In this document: positions 38,019-46,613 of the stretch, in pieces
Numbering within the stretch: position 1 is the stretch's first letter
Layout: every line of letters starts with the position of its first letter
NCBI GenBank assembly: GCA_052108535.1
Contig: JBQDZM010000003.1
Coordinates: forward strand, 614-64,613
Reading direction: 5' to 3'
Origin: Galactobacter sp.
GTDB lineage: Bacteria > Actinomycetota > Actinomycetes > Actinomycetales > Micrococcaceae
DNA length: 64,000 nucleotides
The notes under the pieces: model-generated
What the model saw: only the letters and a program-made list of their open reading frames with translations
Told to the model about the DNA's origin: nothing
Databases searched by the model: none
Made by a program: the position numbers and the translations under genes

Positions 38019-38551
38019 ATGCCGACGTCGACGACTCATAGTCGAGAAAAGCACGTCGTCGAGGGGCGCAGACTCAGCCTGGCGGAGCTTCTAGAGCAGG
38101 CCTCCCATACCGATGGTGGCCAGGAGAGTTCGAACCCGGCACAGACCGACCTGCGTCACAGCGCCGCCGACAACGCAGCAACCGTCCGGGCCCTACTGGC
38201 CCAGGGCGACGGCCTCTACGAGGGCTGGAGGTTCGGCATTCTCCAGACAGTGGACGACTACACCTCCTCGGTCAAACGAGGCGGAGTCGCCCTAGGGCAC
38301 GAGTCTTTAGCGACGAGCCAGAGCCGACGGGCTCCGGCGAACTTGATGCTGCGTTTGCAGCTTTGGCCGACTATCTCGCTCACCGCGACGGCTGGCGTAC
38401 GCCGAGCTGGGCAATGACAACTACTCGCCGCACGCATGACTGGTTCCCCGGTGTACCCGAGTCTTGGCGAACTGAGGCTCTCCGGGATAGTCCTGAAGCT
38501 TTCCGCAGTCGGGGGATCTGGATTACCAACAGATCCCTGGCCCGGGCGTGA
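38019..38551 (+). pseudogene. Frameshifted partner (antitoxin-like) gene of a DUF6036-type nucleotidyltransferase pair
   Basis: A -1 shift at the GGG at 38295-38297 joins ...RGGVALG to ARVFSDEPEPTGSGELDAAFAALADYLA...SPEAFRSRGIWITNRSLARA; GTGA overlap with the next gene. Confidence 0.7.
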
Positions 38552-39102
38552 CCGACGGATCTAGCAAGCGGCGCTCAGCACCACGACTCCAGGCCTTGTT
38601 TCAAGATTTGTCAGACCGGCTGGCGTTCGAAGGCCAAAACGCTCACCTGTTCATCGTCGGTGGTGCCGCCATGGCCCTCGAGTACGACCAGCAACGCACG
38701 ACCCGCGATATTGACGCGATTTTCGTCCCCACGGACGTCATGCGCAGGCTAGCAACAGACGTTGCTGTTGCCCGCGGTCTTGAACCTGACTGGATCAACG
38801 ACACGGCCAAGGGTTCAAGCCCGGCCGCGATACTGAATCTCGAGTTGTCTTCGAATCGCCATCCCCGGTCGTGGATGTCCCCTCTCCGGAGTACCTCCTA
38901 GCCATGAAGCTGCTTGCCTCTCGTGACGAAAGAGATCAAGCAGATGCCGCGTTGCTGTTCAACCTGGTCGGCTATACCTCAGCAGATGAGGCACGAGCAT
39001 TGTTGGAGCGGTCATGCCTGTCTTCGATGCTCCCCCGGTGCCTGGTACGTCGTCCAGGAAGTCGCGGACATCGCAGCTACCCAACGTCGGCAGGAACGCT
39101 AA
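38548..39102 (+). pseudogene. Frameshifted DUF6036/AbiEii-like nucleotidyltransferase (toxin-like)
   Basis: IVGGAAM...RTTRDIDA (GG...DxD NTase motif), WINDTAKG, then a -1 shift at about 38814 to FKPGRD...PSPEYLLAMKLLASRDERDQAD; probable second shift near 39032-39036. Confidence 0.75.
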
Positions 39103-39308
39103 TTTCAAGGACTGTAGCCCGGCTGTTCACCGGCTTGCTAATGCCCAGCGAAGGCACGTCACTGCACACTCAAAGTTCATAAGTCTCCGGCCAGACGCCC
39201 CAAGTCCGGCAAGCACGCCTGCAGAAGGTAGCTGGCCGAGACGGCCAGCGCGATCTCTCGGCGGAAAACATGCATGTAACAGGGAACTATACAAACCTGC
39301 ACAACCGC

Positions 39309-40625
39309 TTAGTGCAACTTTGATACCCAATCGCGATTCTGCCGATCCCCATCTATACGCTGGCGAAGCTCCTCAGCACTAATGCCCAATTTTAGACCAA
39401 ACCAAGTTCTTATAACTAGAACAGTCATACTCCAACAATTAAGAATATCCACTTCAGGCGGCAACTCTCTATTGGCATGTTTTATGCTATTGTAAATATG
39501 TGCGACACGCTCACGCCACCCGACCAAGCGCTCGGGTATTACATCGGACACTTCCGCCCACACCCTCTCGACCCTTGAGGGTAGTGGCTTGAGATTTGCT
39601 TTAGATTTACTTAATCCGTCGTCCATAAACAGCGAGAGCCCAAGAGCCTCTAGAGCTATTCCGGCTTCAAGCATCAACGCCTCAGGGGTAACCTGTTTGA
39701 AAGATCTAGAAGTTACCAAAGGACGTATCGTACGTTGGTATTTACTATGCAATTTCAACCATGATTCGATGCCAGCCATTTCCAAGTCTTCGAATCTATA
39801 GATGTGTGGGTGTTTATTAACATTAGGAACGTCGATTGGATCACCCTGGATCGGGACGGAAAGCCAGGCTTTTGCCAACGGTTTCCCGCCTACCGAACGG
39901 ATCGGTTCTTTTTCTCGCTGAACACGGATTGCGTTCGTTTCTACCGGAACCCACCGGGAGAGCATCAGAAGGTTTCTAAGCGCATCATGGACCACCATAT
40001 GCTCGTCAAAGGGCTTTGGCTCTACACACTCTGTGCGAACAAAGACGCGGGTCTTAAAGCTCATTTCAAGGCCATTTCCTGGACTCTCACAAGTCGTAAG
40101 CAGTTTTACAGAAAAATCGCCGACCGATAGCACCTCCTCCGGCACGTCGCGTGTTTCGAGTGAAATACTGCTTCCGCGTCCCGCCCCTCCGAAAGTATCT
40201 ATTTTCTCCCAGGAACGACGCCCCAGCCAATCAGCTAAACCGGAAATTTCAGTTTCAAGACCATTTATAAGTTGCCCCTCAATAGTATATTGAGACCCTT
40301 CTATGGCCATATCTGCAACGATAGTGGCATTTCCTGGTCCACCAATATTTCGATGGTAGTTTGCAGTCCGGCAGCCGCCAAGCGACAGAGACAGATGGGA
40401 ATTTCGGAAAACCATACTTTCCGGAGGCCCCTGAGGATCGTCTACCTCGTCTAGTGTCTTCCAATGTCCAAACCAACGAGCTTGAGCCTCTTCTTCATTT
40501 TGCCACTCAACGTGCACCCGAATATCTGTGCCATTATTTTCAACAACAACTCCGCGGCAAATTATATCGTTAGAGTCGTCATACAGGCTTCCGAGTTGCC
40601 ATTCTCCGGGACCAATTGTTTTCAT
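39309..40625 (-). CDS. ApeA-like HEPN domain protein (N-terminal beta-rich domain + C-terminal HEPN), putative anti-phage RNase
   Basis: INGLETEISGLADWLG segment as in ApeA N-terminal domains; helical C-terminus with ALEAL and RVAHIYNSIKHAN (HEPN-like Nx3H); visibly AT-richer than the host. Confidence 0.65.
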   Translation of the reverse strand: MKTIGPGEWQLGSLYDDSNDIICRGVVVENNGTDIRVHVEWQNEEEAQARWFGHWKTLDEVDDPQGPPESMVFRNSHLSLSLGGCRTANYHRNIGGPGNATIVADMAIEGSQYTIEGQLINGLETEISGLADWLGRRSWEKIDTFGGAGRGSSISLETRDVPEEVLSVGDFSVKLLTTCESPGNGLEMSFKTRVFVRTECVEPKPFDEHMVVHDALRNLLMLSRWVPVETNAIRVQREKEPIRSVGGKPLAKAWLSVPIQGDPIDVPNVNKHPHIYRFEDLEMAGIESWLKLHSKYQRTIRPLVTSRSFKQVTPEALMLEAGIALEALGLSLFMDDGLSKSKANLKPLPSRVERVWAEVSDVIPERLVGWRERVAHIYNSIKHANRELPPEVDILNCWSMTVLVIRTWFGLKLGISAEELRQRIDGDRQNRDWVSKLH

Positions 40626-43600
40626 CCGTTAGCTCCCAGCAACACCAGCTCCGGCAGTTCGTTCACGATCTGTTGCGTTTCCAGGGACAGGGCCACCACG
40701 CGGCCGATCAGGTCGATGATGTAGCGCGGTTGATTGTGCTCGCGAGACCAATCGTTCGGGTCGTTCACGATGCCGGATGCCTTGTCCGTCTTCACTCGGT
40801 ACCGCTCTACGATCCAGTCCAGCGCAGACCGCGAGCCCAGCATGTACTCCTGCGCCGACTCCGGGATGCCGGAGAGGGTCACCCAGCGGTTGTACTTGAG
40901 CTGGGTCTTGTCCCATGCGCCCGACTTCCCCGCATACTTCATCTTCTCCACGCGGAAACGCTCGAACTCATCCTCCGGCGCCCCCGGCAACACGGCCTCG
41001 GTCAGCGGGTACGGTTCCAGGGACTCGTAGCCGATGTGCAGCTCCGACAGCCGCCGGCCCGCCGCCACGAACGCCTCAAAGCGGTCGCGGCCCTCCACCA
41101 TCGGGATCCGCGGCAACTGCTTCTTCAGATCCGACGCATACCGCTCCCGATACTCCGGGCTGTGCAAGAGACCGTAGACGTAGAAGAACACGTCATCCTT
41201 GGTCACCTGTTCACCGTATTTCGCGCGGTACTGGGCCTGCGCCCAGTCGGTGATGTTGTCGACGCGCTGCGGACCACCTTCTTCAGTGCCCGACGCCGCG
41301 AACAGCGTCTCGCCGTCGTCCTGACTTCCCGGGACGTCGGTGTAGGAGTAGCGGGCGAAGAACTGGCCACCGCTACCGGCTCCGGTCACGTGCAAATCTG
41401 GGATCGCGTTCGTCATCAGGACGCTGAACGGAACCGCTGAGCCAGAGCCGACGTTGTAGAACCCGAAGTTCTCGGCCGCCGCTGTTGGGAACAACTCGTT
41501 CAGCCGGTACACCATGTCATTTGCCCGACGATCAAAATAGACCTGCTGCTTCTGGAACGGACGATAGACCGATTCGCGGAAACCTGACGGCACGATGGCG
41601 TACTTCGTCCCACGAGCAATTTGTTTGAAGTCGTCCCGGTTCCAGCTGATCTTGGTGGCGTCGTAGTTCACGAAGGACTTTGGATCGCCAGTAGACCCGG
41701 TGGCAGCGAAGCGATCGACCTCCGAGTTGTAGAACTCGACCATGCTCCGGACATTGTCTTGGAGGCCGGGTGAAGACGAGTTGTAGGCCCAGGCGTCTCG
41801 GTTAGTCTTCAGTCCGCCTGACTGGATCTCGAAGATCGTCTTCATGTTCTTCTTGTCCTTGTCCGCGATGGGTGGGTAGGACTCGTAGTTGGGGTCTCGC
41901 TGGTTGATCCAGTCGCCGGCCTCGTTTGGGGTGATGGTCTCCCAGTCCAGATTGTCCAGCGTTGAGTCGCCGACCAGTGCCAGCTTGGTGTCTCGGTCCA
42001 GGTAGTCGCCGATGTCCTTGTAGTGCAGCACCGACTGCTCGACATTGCCGGGGCGCTTGACCAGCAGCAGAATCGCCACCGTGGCTCGGGAACCGGCGCC
42101 GAAGATCTGTCCGCCTTCCATGTGCGCTTGAACGCCGGACGTTCGGGTGTTCCCCCGCAGGTTGTGGACATAGATCTCGTGGAACTCGTCGGTCAGCGTC
42201 TTGCGCAGCCCGTCCGCCGTGTTGCCGTCGATGTAGCCGCCATTGGAGACGTAGCAGACCACGCCGCCATGCTCTGATCCGAGCACGCGGTTCGACGCCC
42301 AGCGGATGGCACGGATGTAGGAGTCGTAGAGCGAGTTCTTGTTGGTCGCCGTGGTCCGGTCGGCATAGGTGGACCGGATGGACTCGTCCAGGGTGGGGTA
42401 CTTCAGGTTCGCGTTGTTGTCGTTCCCCGAGGTCTGCCCCACGGAGTAGGGCGGGTTGCCGATGATCACGCGGATGTCGAGGGCGTTCTGCTCCACCACG
42501 CGGTCGTTGTTGTTCGTGAAGACGCGTTCGTCCAGGACGTCCCCGTCCTCGGTCATCTGGAAGGTGTCGGTGAGGACGATGCCCTCGAACGGGGCATAGC
42601 CCACCTCGGTTGGCCCCGCGTTGTCGGGCGTGGCTCTTTCACCTGCGGCCTTCACCTGGATTCCGTGGAAGGTGGCCTCGATGTTGATCGCGGCGATGTA
42701 GTACGCCATGAGCAGGATCTCGTTGGCGTGCAGCTCCGAGGCGTACTTGCGGGCCAGGTCATCGGGTTTGATGAGGCCGGATTGCAGCAGGCGCGTGATG
42801 AATGTGCCGGTCCCGGTGAAAGGATCCAGCACATGCACACCCTCATCGGAGATGCTCGCATTGAAGTGTTCCTTCAGAGCGTCATCGACCGCACGGAGGA
42901 TGAAATCCACCACCGGCAGCGGCGTATAGACAATGCCCAACGACTCCGCCGTCTTGGGGAAGGCCAGCTTGAAGAAACGCTCATAGAGTTCCGTGATGAT
43001 CTTCTGCTTGCCGGCGGCATCCTCTATGCCCTCGGCCCGAACCCGCACGGAGCGGTAGAACTCCTCCAGCGAGGCCGTCTCCGAATCCAGGTTGTAGGAA
43101 TCCAGCACCGTGAGCATGGAGTCCATGACCTGGGAGACCGGGTTGTGCTGGGAGAACTGGTAGTCCTCAAAGAGGGCATCGAACACCGGCTTGGTGATCA
43201 GGTGCTGCACCAGCATGTCCACGGCATCCGCTGTTGAGATGCCCTCGTTCAGGTTGGCCCGCAGGCCCTCCAAGAAGCCCTCAAACTCCTGGGCAGGGCG
43301 CGGGTCGGTGCCGGTGAGAATGGTCTTGATGCGGGTGACCTGGCGGTCAGCGATGTCCTTGACGTCGGACGCCCAGTCTTCCCAGTAGCGGCGGTCGCCC
43401 ACCTTCTTCACCATCCGGGCGAAGATCGCGTCCTCCCAGTCCTTGGCCCTGGCCATGCTGAACAATGCCTCGGTCTGCTGGTTGTTCATGGTGTTCGGGT
43501 CGGAGTCGGGGTCCTGGCCCGAGCCGACCCCGATCACGTCGATGCGGGTATTGGCTTGGCTGTCAACGTCGATCTTGTTGATCATCGCCTCGAAGCGGTC

Positions 43601-45598
43601 GTCGTGCGCGCGAAGCGCCTGCAGCACGTCCCAGACGACCTTGTACTTCTTGTTATCGTTCAGCGCGGTCTCCGGATCCTGGGACGCAGGGACCGCGATC
43701 GGCAGGATGATGTAGCCGTATTCCTTATTAGTGGTGGCCGACTTCCGCATCACCCGACCCACCGCCTGCACCACATCCACCTGCGAGTTCCGCGGATTCA
43801 GGAACAGCACGGCATCCAGGCTCGGAACGTCCACACCCTCGGTGAGGCACTTCGCGTTGGTCAGAATCCGGCAGGTGTTCTGACCAGCCTGCTCCTGCAA
43901 CCAACTCAGCTTCTTACCGCGCTGAGCCACCGAGAACGTGCCATCCACATGCTCGGCCTCCAGCCTCAGCGCACTCGCGGGAGGCTCCTCAGCCAACGTC
44001 TCGGCGGAAGCCGACTCCGCGTCGTCGCGCACCATGTTTTCCTTGGCAACCGGGCCGAGCTCACCAGCATTGGCGAGCAGCTCGCGGCCAACGCGCTCAA
44101 ATTGCTGAGCAAGGGCCTTGGACTCCTTGATGTTGCGGGCAAAGGCAACCGCACGATGCATGGGTGCCGTGTCAGTGACGGAGAGACGCTGGCCATTCAT
44201 GCCGCGCTTGGAAAGGCCGTTCCAGCACCCCACGATCCGCGCGACATCATCCAGGTTCATCTCCCCGCCCTCGCTGAGCAGGTCCTGGAAAGAGGTGGCC
44301 ACGGATTCCTCGTCCACGGCGAGGATGAGCACCTTGTAATCGGCGAGGTGGCCCTCCTCCACCGCCTTGCCGAAGCCCAGGTGATGGAACTCGGGACCGT
44401 AGATCTCCTCGCTGTCCATGGAGGCCAGGACCACGCCAGACTGATCCGCCTTCGCTTTGGAATCCTCGCCGAAGATCCGCGGAGTCGCGGTCATGTAGAG
44501 CCGCTTGGCCGCGCGCAAGTAGGTGTCATCGTGGACGCGTACGAAGTTCGAATCATCCGTACCAGGGACCTTGGCCCCCGTAGTCCGATGGGCCTCATCG
44601 CACACGACCAGATCGAAGGCCGGCAACGGGTGCGTGGGATCCTGCTGAGCCTGGTGGATCACCTCGATCGACTGATACGTCGAGAAGACGACGTTCAGCG
44701 ACTTCTTCTCCCCTGGTTGGGCAACGTGACCCTCGTTGGCCTGGCGGAAACGCTGAGCTAGTTTCTCTGCGTCCGTGGTTGCTGGGAATCCGAGTTCGTG
44801 GGCTCGCATGTCCTCGTTTGTGGTCCGTCGTCCCACTGACGTGTCCGAACAAACCGCGAAGGCACGGATCCGGGACTCAGACTGTGCTGTCCATTCGTTC
44901 AGAGTCTGCTGCAGCAGCGCGATGGAAGGGACCAGGAACAGGACGGTGCCGCCATCCCGGACTTCCTCCTCCACGAGGCGAAGCGAGGTGAAGGTCTTGC
45001 CCGTGCCGCAGGCCATGATCAGCTTGCCCCGATCATGCAAGCTGAACCCCTTTTTGACAGCGTCGATGGCTGTACGTTGGTACGGGCGCGGGCGCTTGTT
45101 CTGGGCCTTGGCCAGGTCATCCGGCTTGTCGAAGTCGAACAGGGACCAGTCGATGGATGAGTTCTCGAAGCCTTCCAGGCCGAAGAGCTGGGTCGGCTTG
45201 GACTGGGCCTCGAGTGACGACTTCAGATTCGGAGAGATGCCGCCTGCCGTGTGGACAATCAGCCCCTGAGAGAAGTCCTTGGTACCCAATTGGGTGAAGA
45301 ACGAATCGACGGCAGACTTCTGCAGCGGGCGGGACGGATCATAGAACTTCGCCTGGATGGCCGTGAGCTCACCGGTCACCCGATCCTGTGCCACCAGGTC
45401 AACACCCGTGTCTCTGCCCGAGCGGCCTGGCCACTCATCCCAGAGCCAGACGTTGGAGAACTCTTCAGCATACTTCGGGTCCAGGAGCAGGAAGCGCTTG
45501 AGCATCCGCTCGAACTTGGTCCCCTTGTCCCGTTCACTTCGATTTGATTCATCGAAGTAGAGACGGTCGAAAACTTCGGCGAAGGTCTGAGTGCTCAC
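40622..45598 (-). CDS. Type ISP single-polypeptide restriction-modification enzyme (LlaGI/LlaBIII-like)
   Basis: Mrr-like nuclease DTGVDLV...IQAK, SF2 helicase MACGTGKT and DEAH, MTase motifs VLDPFTGTGTF and IGNPPY, C-terminal TRD. TAGTCT -10 hexamer 6 nt before GTG 45598 (ORF-track start 45604). Confidence 0.93.
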   Translation of the reverse strand: MSTQTFAEVFDRLYFDESNRSERDKGTKFERMLKRFLLLDPKYAEEFSNVWLWDEWPGRSGRDTGVDLVAQDRVTGELTAIQAKFYDPSRPLQKSAVDSFFTQLGTKDFSQGLIVHTAGGISPNLKSSLEAQSKPTQLFGLEGFENSSIDWSLFDFDKPDDLAKAQNKRPRPYQRTAIDAVKKGFSLHDRGKLIMACGTGKTFTSLRLVEEEVRDGGTVLFLVPSIALLQQTLNEWTAQSESRIRAFAVCSDTSVGRRTTNEDMRAHELGFPATTDAEKLAQRFRQANEGHVAQPGEKKSLNVVFSTYQSIEVIHQAQQDPTHPLPAFDLVVCDEAHRTTGAKVPGTDDSNFVRVHDDTYLRAAKRLYMTATPRIFGEDSKAKADQSGVVLASMDSEEIYGPEFHHLGFGKAVEEGHLADYKVLILAVDEESVATSFQDLLSEGGEMNLDDVARIVGCWNGLSKRGMNGQRLSVTDTAPMHRAVAFARNIKESKALAQQFERVGRELLANAGELGPVAKENMVRDDAESASAETLAEEPPASALRLEAEHVDGTFSVAQRGKKLSWLQEQAGQNTCRILTNAKCLTEGVDVPSLDAVLFLNPRNSQVDVVQAVGRVMRKSATTNKEYGYIILPIAVPASQDPETALNDNKKYKVVWDVLQALRAHDDRFEAMINKIDVDSQANTRIDVIGVGSGQDPDSDPNTMNNQQTEALFSMARAKDWEDAIFARMVKKVGDRRYWEDWASDVKDIADRQVTRIKTILTGTDPRPAQEFEGFLEGLRANLNEGISTADAVDMLVQHLITKPVFDALFEDYQFSQHNPVSQVMDSMLTVLDSYNLDSETASLEEFYRSVRVRAEGIEDAAGKQKIITELYERFFKLAFPKTAESLGIVYTPLPVVDFILRAVDDALKEHFNASISDEGVHVLDPFTGTGTFITRLLQSGLIKPDDLARKYASELHANEILLMAYYIAAINIEATFHGIQVKAAGERATPDNAGPTEVGYAPFEGIVLTDTFQMTEDGDVLDERVFTNNNDRVVEQNALDIRVIIGNPPYSVGQTSGNDNNANLKYPTLDESIRSTYADRTTATNKNSLYDSYIRAIRWASNRVLGSEHGGVVCYVSNGGYIDGNTADGLRKTLTDEFHEIYVHNLRGNTRTSGVQAHMEGGQIFGAGSRATVAILLLVKRPGNVEQSVLHYKDIGDYLDRDTKLALVGDSTLDNLDWETITPNEAGDWINQRDPNYESYPPIADKDKKNMKTIFEIQSGGLKTNRDAWAYNSSSPGLQDNVRSMVEFYNSEVDRFAATGSTGDPKSFVNYDATKISWNRDDFKQIARGTKYAIVPSGFRESVYRPFQKQQVYFDRRANDMVYRLNELFPTAAAENFGFYNVGSGSAVPFSVLMTNAIPDLHVTGAGSGGQFFARYSYTDVPGSQDDGETLFAASGTEEGGPQRVDNITDWAQAQYRAKYGEQVTKDDVFFYVYGLLHSPEYRERYASDLKKQLPRIPMVEGRDRFEAFVAAGRRLSELHIGYESLEPYPLTEAVLPGAPEDEFERFRVEKMKYAGKSGAWDKTQLKYNRWVTLSGIPESAQEYMLGSRSALDWIVERYRVKTDKASGIVNDPNDWSREHNQPRYIIDLIGRVVALSLETQQIVNELPELVLLGANG

Positions 45599-45699
45599 AT
45601 TCACAGACTAGTCGTGCTCTGCGCCGGCCGACCAATGCAACTCTCTCTCAAACGGCGCACTTGGTCGCGCTCGAAGCCGGATTACGCAGAACCCAACAT

Positions 45700-46251
45700 T
45701 TATGGAATATAGGCCCACACATCGCACTCCGGGTCATCCTCGTGATCCCAGAGCCTGACGAAACCATGCCGACCGAGAAGGCCTTGGCTCGGGGTGTTCG
45801 CCTTCCGTATGTGAGCCCACACGGGAACCGGTGAGTCGCCCTCATGCATGCCGGTGCTGTAGCGAGAGTCCAACTCTGCGGCCATACTCAACCCCTGCAT
45901 GACGGCAGCGTCTCCGCACCCCTTACCCCGGTGGCCCACGGAAACAGCAAGACAGACAATGAGAAGCTGACCGACGACTTCACCTGTCTCGGGAATCGTG
46001 CCCCGCTGCACCTCCAGCTCAACGTATGAAACAAGCTCCCTGCCCTCGTACCCGAGCTGAATGGTTCGGTCATAGTTGTTACCGCGTGGTGTAACACCCC
46101 GGATGTGGTTCTGCACGGACAGCTCATGCGGGTACTTGTGGGGCGGTCGACCACGTCCGAGTTCATACCCGGGTGGTTTCGGAGGATCTGCACAAGTGAA
46201 GCCAGCCAGATCGCGGATGTGCTCCCTGCTCAGTTCATGCCAAGTGAGCAC
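45700..46251 (-). CDS. GNAT-fold protein, putative toxin
   Basis: N-terminal LAGFTCAD resembles the FDCG motif of GNAT toxins; LAVSVGHRGKGCG acetyl-CoA motif A; N..S..L..RHGF motif B. Confidence 0.7.
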   Translation of the reverse strand: MLTWHELSREHIRDLAGFTCADPPKPPGYELGRGRPPHKYPHELSVQNHIRGVTPRGNNYDRTIQLGYEGRELVSYVELEVQRGTIPETGEVVGQLLIVCLAVSVGHRGKGCGDAAVMQGLSMAAELDSRYSTGMHEGDSPVPVWAHIRKANTPSQGLLGRHGFVRLWDHEDDPECDVWAYIP

Positions 46252-46447
46252 GGCTCAGTGCGCGAATATACTCTGTAGCCCGAACGACCTGAGCATTCGT
46301 CATCGTGGCGTCGATGGTCTCGAACTTTCTGAGAGCGGCCTTGTGCTCATCCTCGGTGAAACCATATCCATCGTCGTCCAACCGAGAGACGACCGTGGAC
46401 TGGTCAGCGATAGCTCTGCGTGCCTGTGCTGTCGTCGTCATGTTCAC
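46235..46447 (-). CDS. 70-aa hypothetical protein, putative antitoxin
   Basis: Own RBS (GGAAGGGG); overlaps the GNAT start by 17 nt; acidic core LDDDGYGFTEDEH and helical C-terminus. Confidence 0.6.
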   Translation of the reverse strand: MNMTTTAQARRAIADQSTVVSRLDDDGYGFTEDEHKAALRKFETIDATMTNAQVVRATEYIRALSRAHLA

Positions 46448-46613
46448 GCCCCTTCCACGGACTGCAACTGCTGGACACCGCTTACCCTAGCCTGCATCTG
46501 CTGGAGGCGCGAGATGTAAGCAGCAAGAATCACGCCCTATGGAGCTCCAGTCAAGCGAAGGCCCAAACGGGCATTTTCTCGCCTGCGTTCCGCTAGATTC
46601 CGCGGCAGTAGCC

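Follow-up and report, generated by a model that had tools for sequence, protein, structure and literature searches.

A putative family of mobile, prophage-borne GNAT toxin-antitoxin-like modules with an undescribed partner in Actinomycetota

To our knowledge, the characterised GNAT toxins all fall in one clade, have DUF1778 (or DUF4065) proteins as their antitoxins and inhibit translation through the acetylation of charged tRNA. Pairs of a GNAT with a ribbon-helix-helix (RHH) protein or with an Xre protein were first predicted in 2009 by Makarova et al. (PMC2701414). TacT acetylates aminoacyl-tRNA, and its Y140 is essential for toxicity, the Y140F change abolishing it (PMC4942678). Bikmetov et al. 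(2022; PMC9177977) placed the DUF1778-linked toxins in one 'true TA clade' (TA, toxin-antitoxin) with a DUF4065 (PanA)-linked sub-clade, reported that GNAT toxins can exchange antitoxin families, and described TA-like GNAT bicistrons outside that clade, whose divergent short upstream open reading frames (ORFs) have no DNA-binding domain and whose function they left open. Here we describe a GNAT gene and its small upstream partner in a stretch of 64,000 nucleotides (nt) from Galactobacter sp. (assembly GCA_052108535.1, contig JBQDZM010000003.1, positions 614 to 64,613). We call this whole stretch the window and use its numbering.

The pair resembles the GNAT/DUF1778 systems (TacAT, AtaRT, KacAT, ItaRT, GmvAT) in having the small gene first, overlapping a GNAT gene of about 170-180 amino acids (aa), in its presence on mobile, integrated elements, in a GNAT fold with an acetyl-CoA P-loop, and in an F-x-C that aligns to their F-x-C-G. 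Unlike them, it has a partner that is not a DUF1778/RHH protein and a GNAT with no tyrosine at the position of TacT Y140, and a conserved loop of about 20 residues between helices alpha1 and alpha2 (HPxPWELEVQS) sets the window family apart from TacT-type toxins. On balance, we read the pair as belonging to an undescribed family of mobile, prophage-borne GNAT toxin-antitoxin-like modules. An initial annotation of the window had proposed a new GNAT TA pairing that might form part of one island with a neighbouring restriction-modification (RM) gene. The TA-like anatomy, the mobility and the keeping of the pair across the GNAT clade speak for the first part of that proposal; the shared island layer found no support in comparison with other loci. 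The layout it gave, small gene first, then a 17-nt overlap, then the GNAT, is what we found:

46235..46441, minus strand: partner gene, 68 aa from the ATG at 46441, with a 100%-identical 68-aa protein in the databases.
45700..46251, minus strand: GNAT acetyltransferase gene, 183 aa, GTG start codon, of a rare and unnamed clade.
46235..46251, minus strand: overlap of the partner and GNAT genes, 17 nt by ORF coordinates, identical in the prophage locus L006 (5866-5882).
46449..46456, minus strand: Shine-Dalgarno sequence GGAAGGGG, 7 nt 5' of the ATG at 46441.
46484..46489, minus strand: candidate -10 element of the TANNNT type (TAGGGT), roughly 43 nt before the ATG.

Counted from a GTG at 46447, the partner ORF (46235-46447, minus strand) would encode 70 aa. 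The ATG at 46441, giving 68 aa, is the more likely true start, because it is preceded at 7 nt by the conserved GGAAGGGG and is where the identical database protein begins. The counterparts of this Shine-Dalgarno sequence are GGAAGGAG in L006 and GGAGGAG in the Galactobacter valiniphilus locus (G005, L023). The candidate -10 element aligns with TATGGT of prophage L006; a scan for sigma-70 consensus promoters around the pair gave no match, and a search for inverted repeats upstream of it found none. The 17-nt overlap suggests that translation of the two genes is coupled.

The small ORF has orthologues in the prophage (67 aa, 72% identity, identical 17-nt overlap) and in G. valiniphilus (67 aa, 46% identity, same overlap), and in the two orthologue comparisons the ratio of nonsynonymous to synonymous substitution (dN/dS) was 0.19 and about 0.10. 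Because the ORF is kept with the same overlap at these levels of identity and under such dN/dS values, it is a genuine gene and no chance frame.

This partner was also said to show no DUF1778 or RHH pattern, and our searches agree. It had no Pfam or NCBIfam match even at E≤10, and no PADLOC (E≤1) or PHROGs family. Its profiles did not match those of eight DUF1778 antitoxins (hhalign, P=0.24-0.35). Its AlphaFold2 model is all-helical, with three helices and without the N-terminal strand. PF08681 (DUF1778) was not found anywhere in this genome; it was present in 24 of 151 sampled Actinomycetota genomes.

The GNAT itself is similarly hard to place with standard models. Pfam Acetyltransf_1 (PF00583) matched below threshold (E=0.005, 17.5 bits against a cut-off of 20.7), and no NCBIfam, PADLOC (E≤1) or PHROGs family was found. 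We defined the family by searching 1.84 billion cluster representatives exhaustively with HMMER; 304 proteins scored at E≤1e-3, 79 of them at E≤1e-10, and almost all were 160-200 aa long and matched end to end. With either protein as query, or with an 86-sequence profile, a word-indexed protein search gave only 1-9 matches. One candidate member, P0081 (1964 aa), was rejected as a false positive, a eukaryotic repeat protein.

Members share the N-terminal signature W..A...DR..L..FxC[TA]xP ... HP[RK]PWEL[ED]VQSxIR, which in the window GNAT reads FTCADP...HKYPHELSVQNHIR. C20 and N152 are invariant in all 86 aligned members, and W4, F18, P23, H38, Q47, S155, G163, F164 and W179 are conserved in at least 90% of the same alignment. 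The motifs FTCAD (residues 18-22) and AVSVGHRGKGCG (residues 102-113), picked out in the initial annotation, are both present. Its two supposed insertions fared differently: STGMHEGDSP is specific to the window clade, and PPKPPGYELGRGRPPHKYP, which contains the near-invariant P23 and H38, is no insertion at all, being the alpha1-alpha2 loop conserved throughout the family.

The named members, from Flexivirga and Microbacterium, are annotated merely as hypothetical or N-acetyltransferase-domain proteins. Among 400 sampled Actinomycetota genomes searched with the profile there was no further member bearing the signature, and of 185,579 species genomes scanned by pattern only G. valiniphilus matched. 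By these searches the clade is rare and unnamed.

What holds the family together is the pairing. We examined 12 locus types (the window type, L012, L032, L034, L035, L037, L039, L040, L043, L059, L060/61 and the L041 type). In all 12, the gene upstream of the GNAT runs in the same direction and stops somewhere from 14 nt short of the GNAT start to 23 nt past it. Eleven of these partners are unannotated. The twelfth, in the L041 type, is a 369-aa protein with an XRE helix-turn-helix (HTH) and a Peptidase_M78 domain that overlaps its GNAT by 4 nt. Proteins of this kind are classic antitoxins or regulators, and it is the only partner in which an HTH was found. Eight partners share the motif DG[LF][TS]xxE[RH]; after it come a short spacer and a helix with a basic tail at its end. 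Some of the proteins with this motif are small (58-88 aa); in larger ones (176-297 aa) it lies at the C-terminus, as would be expected of a modular neutralising domain. The window partner has a divergent form of it, GFTEDEH (within DGYGFTEDEH), and also a basic C-terminal helix. Compared by hhalign with the DGLTxxER partners, the window-clade partner gave P=0.002-0.005, and its position and register lend further support to a plausible homology.

The long partners (L035 257-1150, L037 427-1182, L034 3474-4004 and L043 3051-3635) share a homologous N-terminal domain, with 30% identity and E=2e-23 between two of them. This domain matched no Pfam family, and the 297-aa partner had no relative in the PDB. 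The DGLTxxER module is here joined to a domain that has not been described.

These partners have precedents of a kind. As in the bicistrons outside the 'true TA clade' (PMC9177977), the upstream ORF is short, divergent and without a predictable DNA-binding domain; unlike those of the bicistrons, the short ORFs of the window family mostly share a motif, form a partner family and recur as a C-terminal module. One lineage recalls the GNAT-Xre and COG2856 (M78)-Xre modules (PMC2701414) in being paired with an XRE-HTH and Peptidase_M78 protein. The window partner, in contrast, has neither domain, and the 2009 set was not defined by the window GNAT clade.

The pair also moves as a unit. A GNAT 75% identical to that of the window was found on 220 metagenomic contigs, with a 67-aa ORF upstream. 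In the prophage copies, one of them on a contig that belongs to IMG/VR, the pair sits between a tyrosine integrase and the lysis cassette. The G. valiniphilus GNAT is 60% identical to that of the window, and an integrase lies about 2 kb upstream of its pair. When the window was compared by blastn with the prophage and G. valiniphilus loci, only 45701-46479 matched, that is, the two genes and about 30 nt upstream. In L006 and L023 a strong GC hairpin with a T-run follows the GNAT; the window copy has no such terminator. Because DNA similarity is confined to the two genes, the prophage site adjoins an integrase and the prophage copies have their own terminator, the pair is a discrete, autonomous mobile two-gene cassette. 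Its anatomy is that of a generic type II TA system, with small co-directional genes that overlap or adjoin, are kept as a pair and move together.

Only the window sub-clade of the GNAT family was found on a viral contig. A tblastn search of phage collections with the window GNAT and a central family member gave no match, nor did a search of IMG/VR with the GNAT core motif.

In Flexivirga endophytica (L059; BMZJ01000001.1, 4767-12290) a 65-aa partner overlaps the GNAT by 23 nt. The small integrated element in which this family member lies also carries genes of the D5_N/DnaB primase-helicase, WhiB and MerR/HTH_17 excisionase-like types.

If the cassette is a TA module, one of its genes should be harmful, and an allelic series found in the XRE-M78 lineage (L041-L058, metagenome loci) suggests which. 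In this lineage, where near-identical loci occur in many assemblies, the 555-nt GNAT gene has been knocked out independently in four ways: W11stop, a change of the invariant Cys to Tyr (G-to-A), a 1-nt deletion and a 1-nt insertion. Each is present in at least two assemblies. The 1110-nt partner gene has 0-3 substitutions, is full length throughout and has no knock-outs. By a rough binomial on gene length, the chance that all four events fall in the GNAT is P ~0.01. In a second lineage the GNAT is internally disrupted and its 194-aa partner is intact. Since the inactivations fall in the GNAT while the partner stays intact, the pattern fits the GNAT being the costly or toxic component. These are distant members, and the pattern would carry over to the window pair by homology only.

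The polarity could in principle be the reverse. In E. coli, the TopAI(YjhX)-YjhQ pair consists of a small toxin gene followed by a GNAT gene that acts as the antitoxin, and in type VII systems an enzyme modifies the toxin. By this analogy toxicity would lie with the small basic protein, and the GNAT would serve as its antitoxin. The window pair has the gene order of yjhX-yjhQ, most partners are very basic (isoelectric point, pI, 9.5-11.8), and the small partner forms have no DNA-binding domain. The knock-outs argue for the opposite polarity: GNAT-dead alleles with an intact partner, seen in several assemblies, would have been lethal or have cost the partner. Nor would a small toxin be expected as a C-terminal module on large proteins, or its place to be taken by an XRE-M78 regulator in one lineage, and the partners' Pfam matches at E≤1 are at chance level, with none to a known toxin family. 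We therefore regard reversed polarity as very improbable.

The GNAT could also be a resistance or detoxification enzyme, acting on an antibiotic, a toxic amino-acid analogue or a polyamine, with the small protein as its regulator. Family members do have weak NCBIfam and PDB similarities to GNATs of the ArsN, phosphinothricin and EctA types, and a regulator with an enzyme is the role first proposed for GNAT-RHH and GNAT-Xre pairs by Makarova et al. The weak matches span the generic acetyl-CoA core only, however, and the proposal was later overturned for GNAT-RHH pairs (PMC4942678, PMC9177977). A prophage site beside an integrase, a tight overlap and a loss pattern confined to the GNAT are also atypical of resistance genes. 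This explanation seems to us the most improbable of those considered here.

The structural model supports an active acetyltransferase. The AlphaFold2 model of the GNAT (pLDDT 86, pTM 0.81) has the fold beta1-alpha1-alpha2-beta2-4-alpha3-beta5-alpha4-beta6. This order of elements matches the GNAT superfamily, and Foldseek returned 508 GNATs from the PDB at E≤1e-3. Residues 18-40, the conserved segment, form the alpha1-alpha2 loop and are modelled with lower confidence. The acetyl-CoA motif RGKGCG is intact in the window GNAT (R108, G111, G113). The enzyme is probably active, because the model is confident, these three residues are in place and the motif is canonical in 56 of the 86 aligned members.

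Among the 50 Foldseek matches listed were the solved GNAT toxins GmvT (rank 4), TacT1, ItaT, KacT, AtaT and AtaT2. The best TM-scores among those 50 were those of TacT1 (0.64/0.76) and AtaT2 (0.64/0.71, root-mean-square deviation 3.8). Overall, the solved GNAT toxins had TM-scores of 0.56-0.64, with some of the lowest root-mean-square deviations, and hundreds of PDB GNATs matched at similar E-values.

Among viral models, an uncharacterised protein from Arthrobacter phage Isolde (174 aa; A0A3G3M4S5 in BFVD; E=2.3e-10, TM 0.73/0.77, 19% identity) resembled the GNAT most closely, by a wide margin. The host of this phage belongs to the same bacterial family.

Several observations weigh against a toxin-antitoxin-like module. 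The best Foldseek E-values were to N-terminal acetyltransferases (Ard1, Naa60). We compared the family profile by hhalign with ten GNATs encoded directly downstream of DUF1778 genes in Actinomycetota, and with RimI and Acetyltransf_3 as controls. It matched the DUF1778-linked GNATs at E=1.3e-10 (127 columns, with FxC aligned to FxCG), RimI at E=5.6e-13 and Acetyltransf_3 at E=1.2e-9, and by this measure is no closer to the DUF1778-linked toxins than to RimI. In a profile search of the PDB, KacT ranked about 26th. In the hhalign alignments the FY of the DUF1778-linked toxins falls on L-[FLC] of the family. The column of TacT Y140 holds F in 41, L in 18 and C in 12 of the 86 members, and L159 in the window GNAT; the tyrosine is absent. 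We do not assign the GNAT to the TacT family, given the replacement of the tyrosine by F, L or C and a profile that shows no specific kinship with the DUF1778-linked toxins. Isoelectric point, tried as a discriminator of tRNA-binding toxins, was uninformative. On the partner side, family searches and the model gave no HTH, RHH or AbrB signal for the window partner, and nothing points to classic autoregulation. The partner model itself has low confidence (pLDDT 62). A hidden Markov model of the partners built without the window clade gave the window partner a non-significant score, and its homology to the DGLTxxER partners is plausible but only suggestive. Finally, the knock-outs come from a distant member of the family (~21-30% identity) with a different partner, and could also mean the decay of a gene that is merely dispensable.

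Much of this would suit a non-toxic, two-component acetyltransferase moron, in which the small protein is an accessory subunit, a specificity factor or a dedicated substrate, and a host or phage protein or a small molecule is modified for lysogenic conversion or superinfection exclusion. The profile as near to RimI as to toxins, the top Foldseek E-values, the missing catalytic tyrosine and the window partner's want of a DNA-binding domain all fit such a role. The best PDB profile match, too, was an uncharacterised GNAT, 3owc, and it has been suggested that GNATs outside the 'true TA clade' may serve other physiological functions (PMC9177977). Three things are harder to reconcile with it. If the enzyme were beneficial and its partner of no use by itself, one would not expect repeated knock-outs of the GNAT beside an intact partner. 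Antitoxin swapping accounts for the XRE-M78 protein in the partner's place better than an obligate subunit would. In a congener, moreover, the slot that holds the cassette in the window is occupied by a ParE toxin-antitoxin pair. We consider the moron unlikely, and were the GNAT to prove non-toxic, the pair would be an ordinary unannotated one.

Taking the pair as a toxin-antitoxin-like module, it might work as follows. The 68-aa partner would be translated first and the GNAT made through translational coupling across the 17-nt overlap. The partner would then bind the GNAT and hold it inactive, the likely contacts being its G[LF]TxxE[RH] segment and its basic C-terminal helix. If the partner were lost or titrated, free GNAT would acetylate an essential cellular target from acetyl-CoA and arrest growth. 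Possible triggers are proteolysis, a shut-off of host expression in the course of phage infection, and loss of the element. By analogy with TacT and AtaT, aminoacyl-tRNA is one candidate target. The alpha1-alpha2 loop, with its invariant Cys, near-invariant His and PWELEVQ, and the missing TacT tyrosine may instead point to a different acceptor site, possibly on a protein. Because in its relatives the cassette is cargo of a prophage or integrative element, beside an integrase, its most likely roles are addiction to the element and/or the exclusion of other phages.

A more specific version of this picture can be drawn, which taken as a whole we think rather unlikely. It would be a new family of GNAT toxins that spare aminoacyl-tRNA and use an acceptor site of Cys20, His38 and PWELEVQ on a protein or other essential target. 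They would be neutralised by a modular domain of about 50 residues (DG[LF]TxxER and a basic helix) that stands alone or on varied N-terminal domains, and be carried by actinobacterial prophages for addiction or phage exclusion.

The family is in either case a second, independent GNAT clade, with its own partner family and acceptor loop and without the canonical tyrosine, and in Actinomycetota it travels on prophages and integrative elements. Should it prove toxic, acetyltransferase toxins would gain in known chemistry or in known targets, and the antitoxins would gain a new neutralising domain. It offers a testable candidate for prophage-encoded defence or addiction in the Micrococcaceae, a group with few characterised systems, and the allelic series of the XRE-M78 lineage is natural material for testing toxicity.

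There remains the surroundings of the window cassette, which sits beside an RM gene in a defence and toxin-antitoxin hot spot. The neighbouring features are:

45605..45699, minus strand: spacer of 95 nt between the GNAT stop and the RM start.
40622..45604, minus strand: Type ISP/IIG restriction-modification gene, 1660 aa, PADLOC REase_MTase_IIG at E=0, outside the cassette.

The RM protein matches the PADLOC Type IIG and Type I RE-MTase models at E=0, and its gene is followed by that of an ApeA_NTD1 protein. The measured spacer agrees with the earlier statement that the pair is co-oriented with the RM gene and 95 nt from it. A terminator scan and an inverted-repeat search of the spacer were both empty. 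Read-through transcription into the RM gene is possible, because the cassette terminator is missing in the window.

The further suggestion that the pair is a third layer of the same island is not supported, on three counts: no RM gene lies beside the pair at the other loci examined, the congener's RM gene has a ParE pair, and the prophage copies have their own terminator. For G. valiniphilus the first of these covers the upstream side, as its contig ends 362 nt downstream of the GNAT. The congener, G003, has an RM gene 77% identical to that of the window and lacks the GNAT pair. The slot upstream of its RM gene (L013, G003:C42, 5881-6431, minus strand) encodes a ParE toxin (E=1.6e-4) and an 'Unstab_antitox' protein (E=5e-10). 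Because G003 holds this pair where the window holds the GNAT pair, the slot beside the RM gene is a landing site for toxin-antitoxin cassettes. We take the GNAT pair and the RM gene to be merely co-located, and a functional link of the pair to the RM/HEPN genes is not supported.

Between about 38.4 and 46.5 kb the G+C content is 0.48-0.63, against 0.65-0.70 in most of the flanks, and this region is bounded by a phosphoglucomutase gene and by ccsB/resB cytochrome c biogenesis genes. We found in this island no tRNA gene, no integrase among its examined ORFs and no flanking direct repeats. At its left end, 38363-39182 (plus strand) matches a DUF6036/AbiEii-type nucleotidyltransferase over the N-terminal third of the models only. 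The match covers 117 aa (38548-38901), and an ORF that overlaps it in a different frame (38871-39182) comes next. This is probably an AbiEii-like toxin gene that has been frameshifted or truncated.

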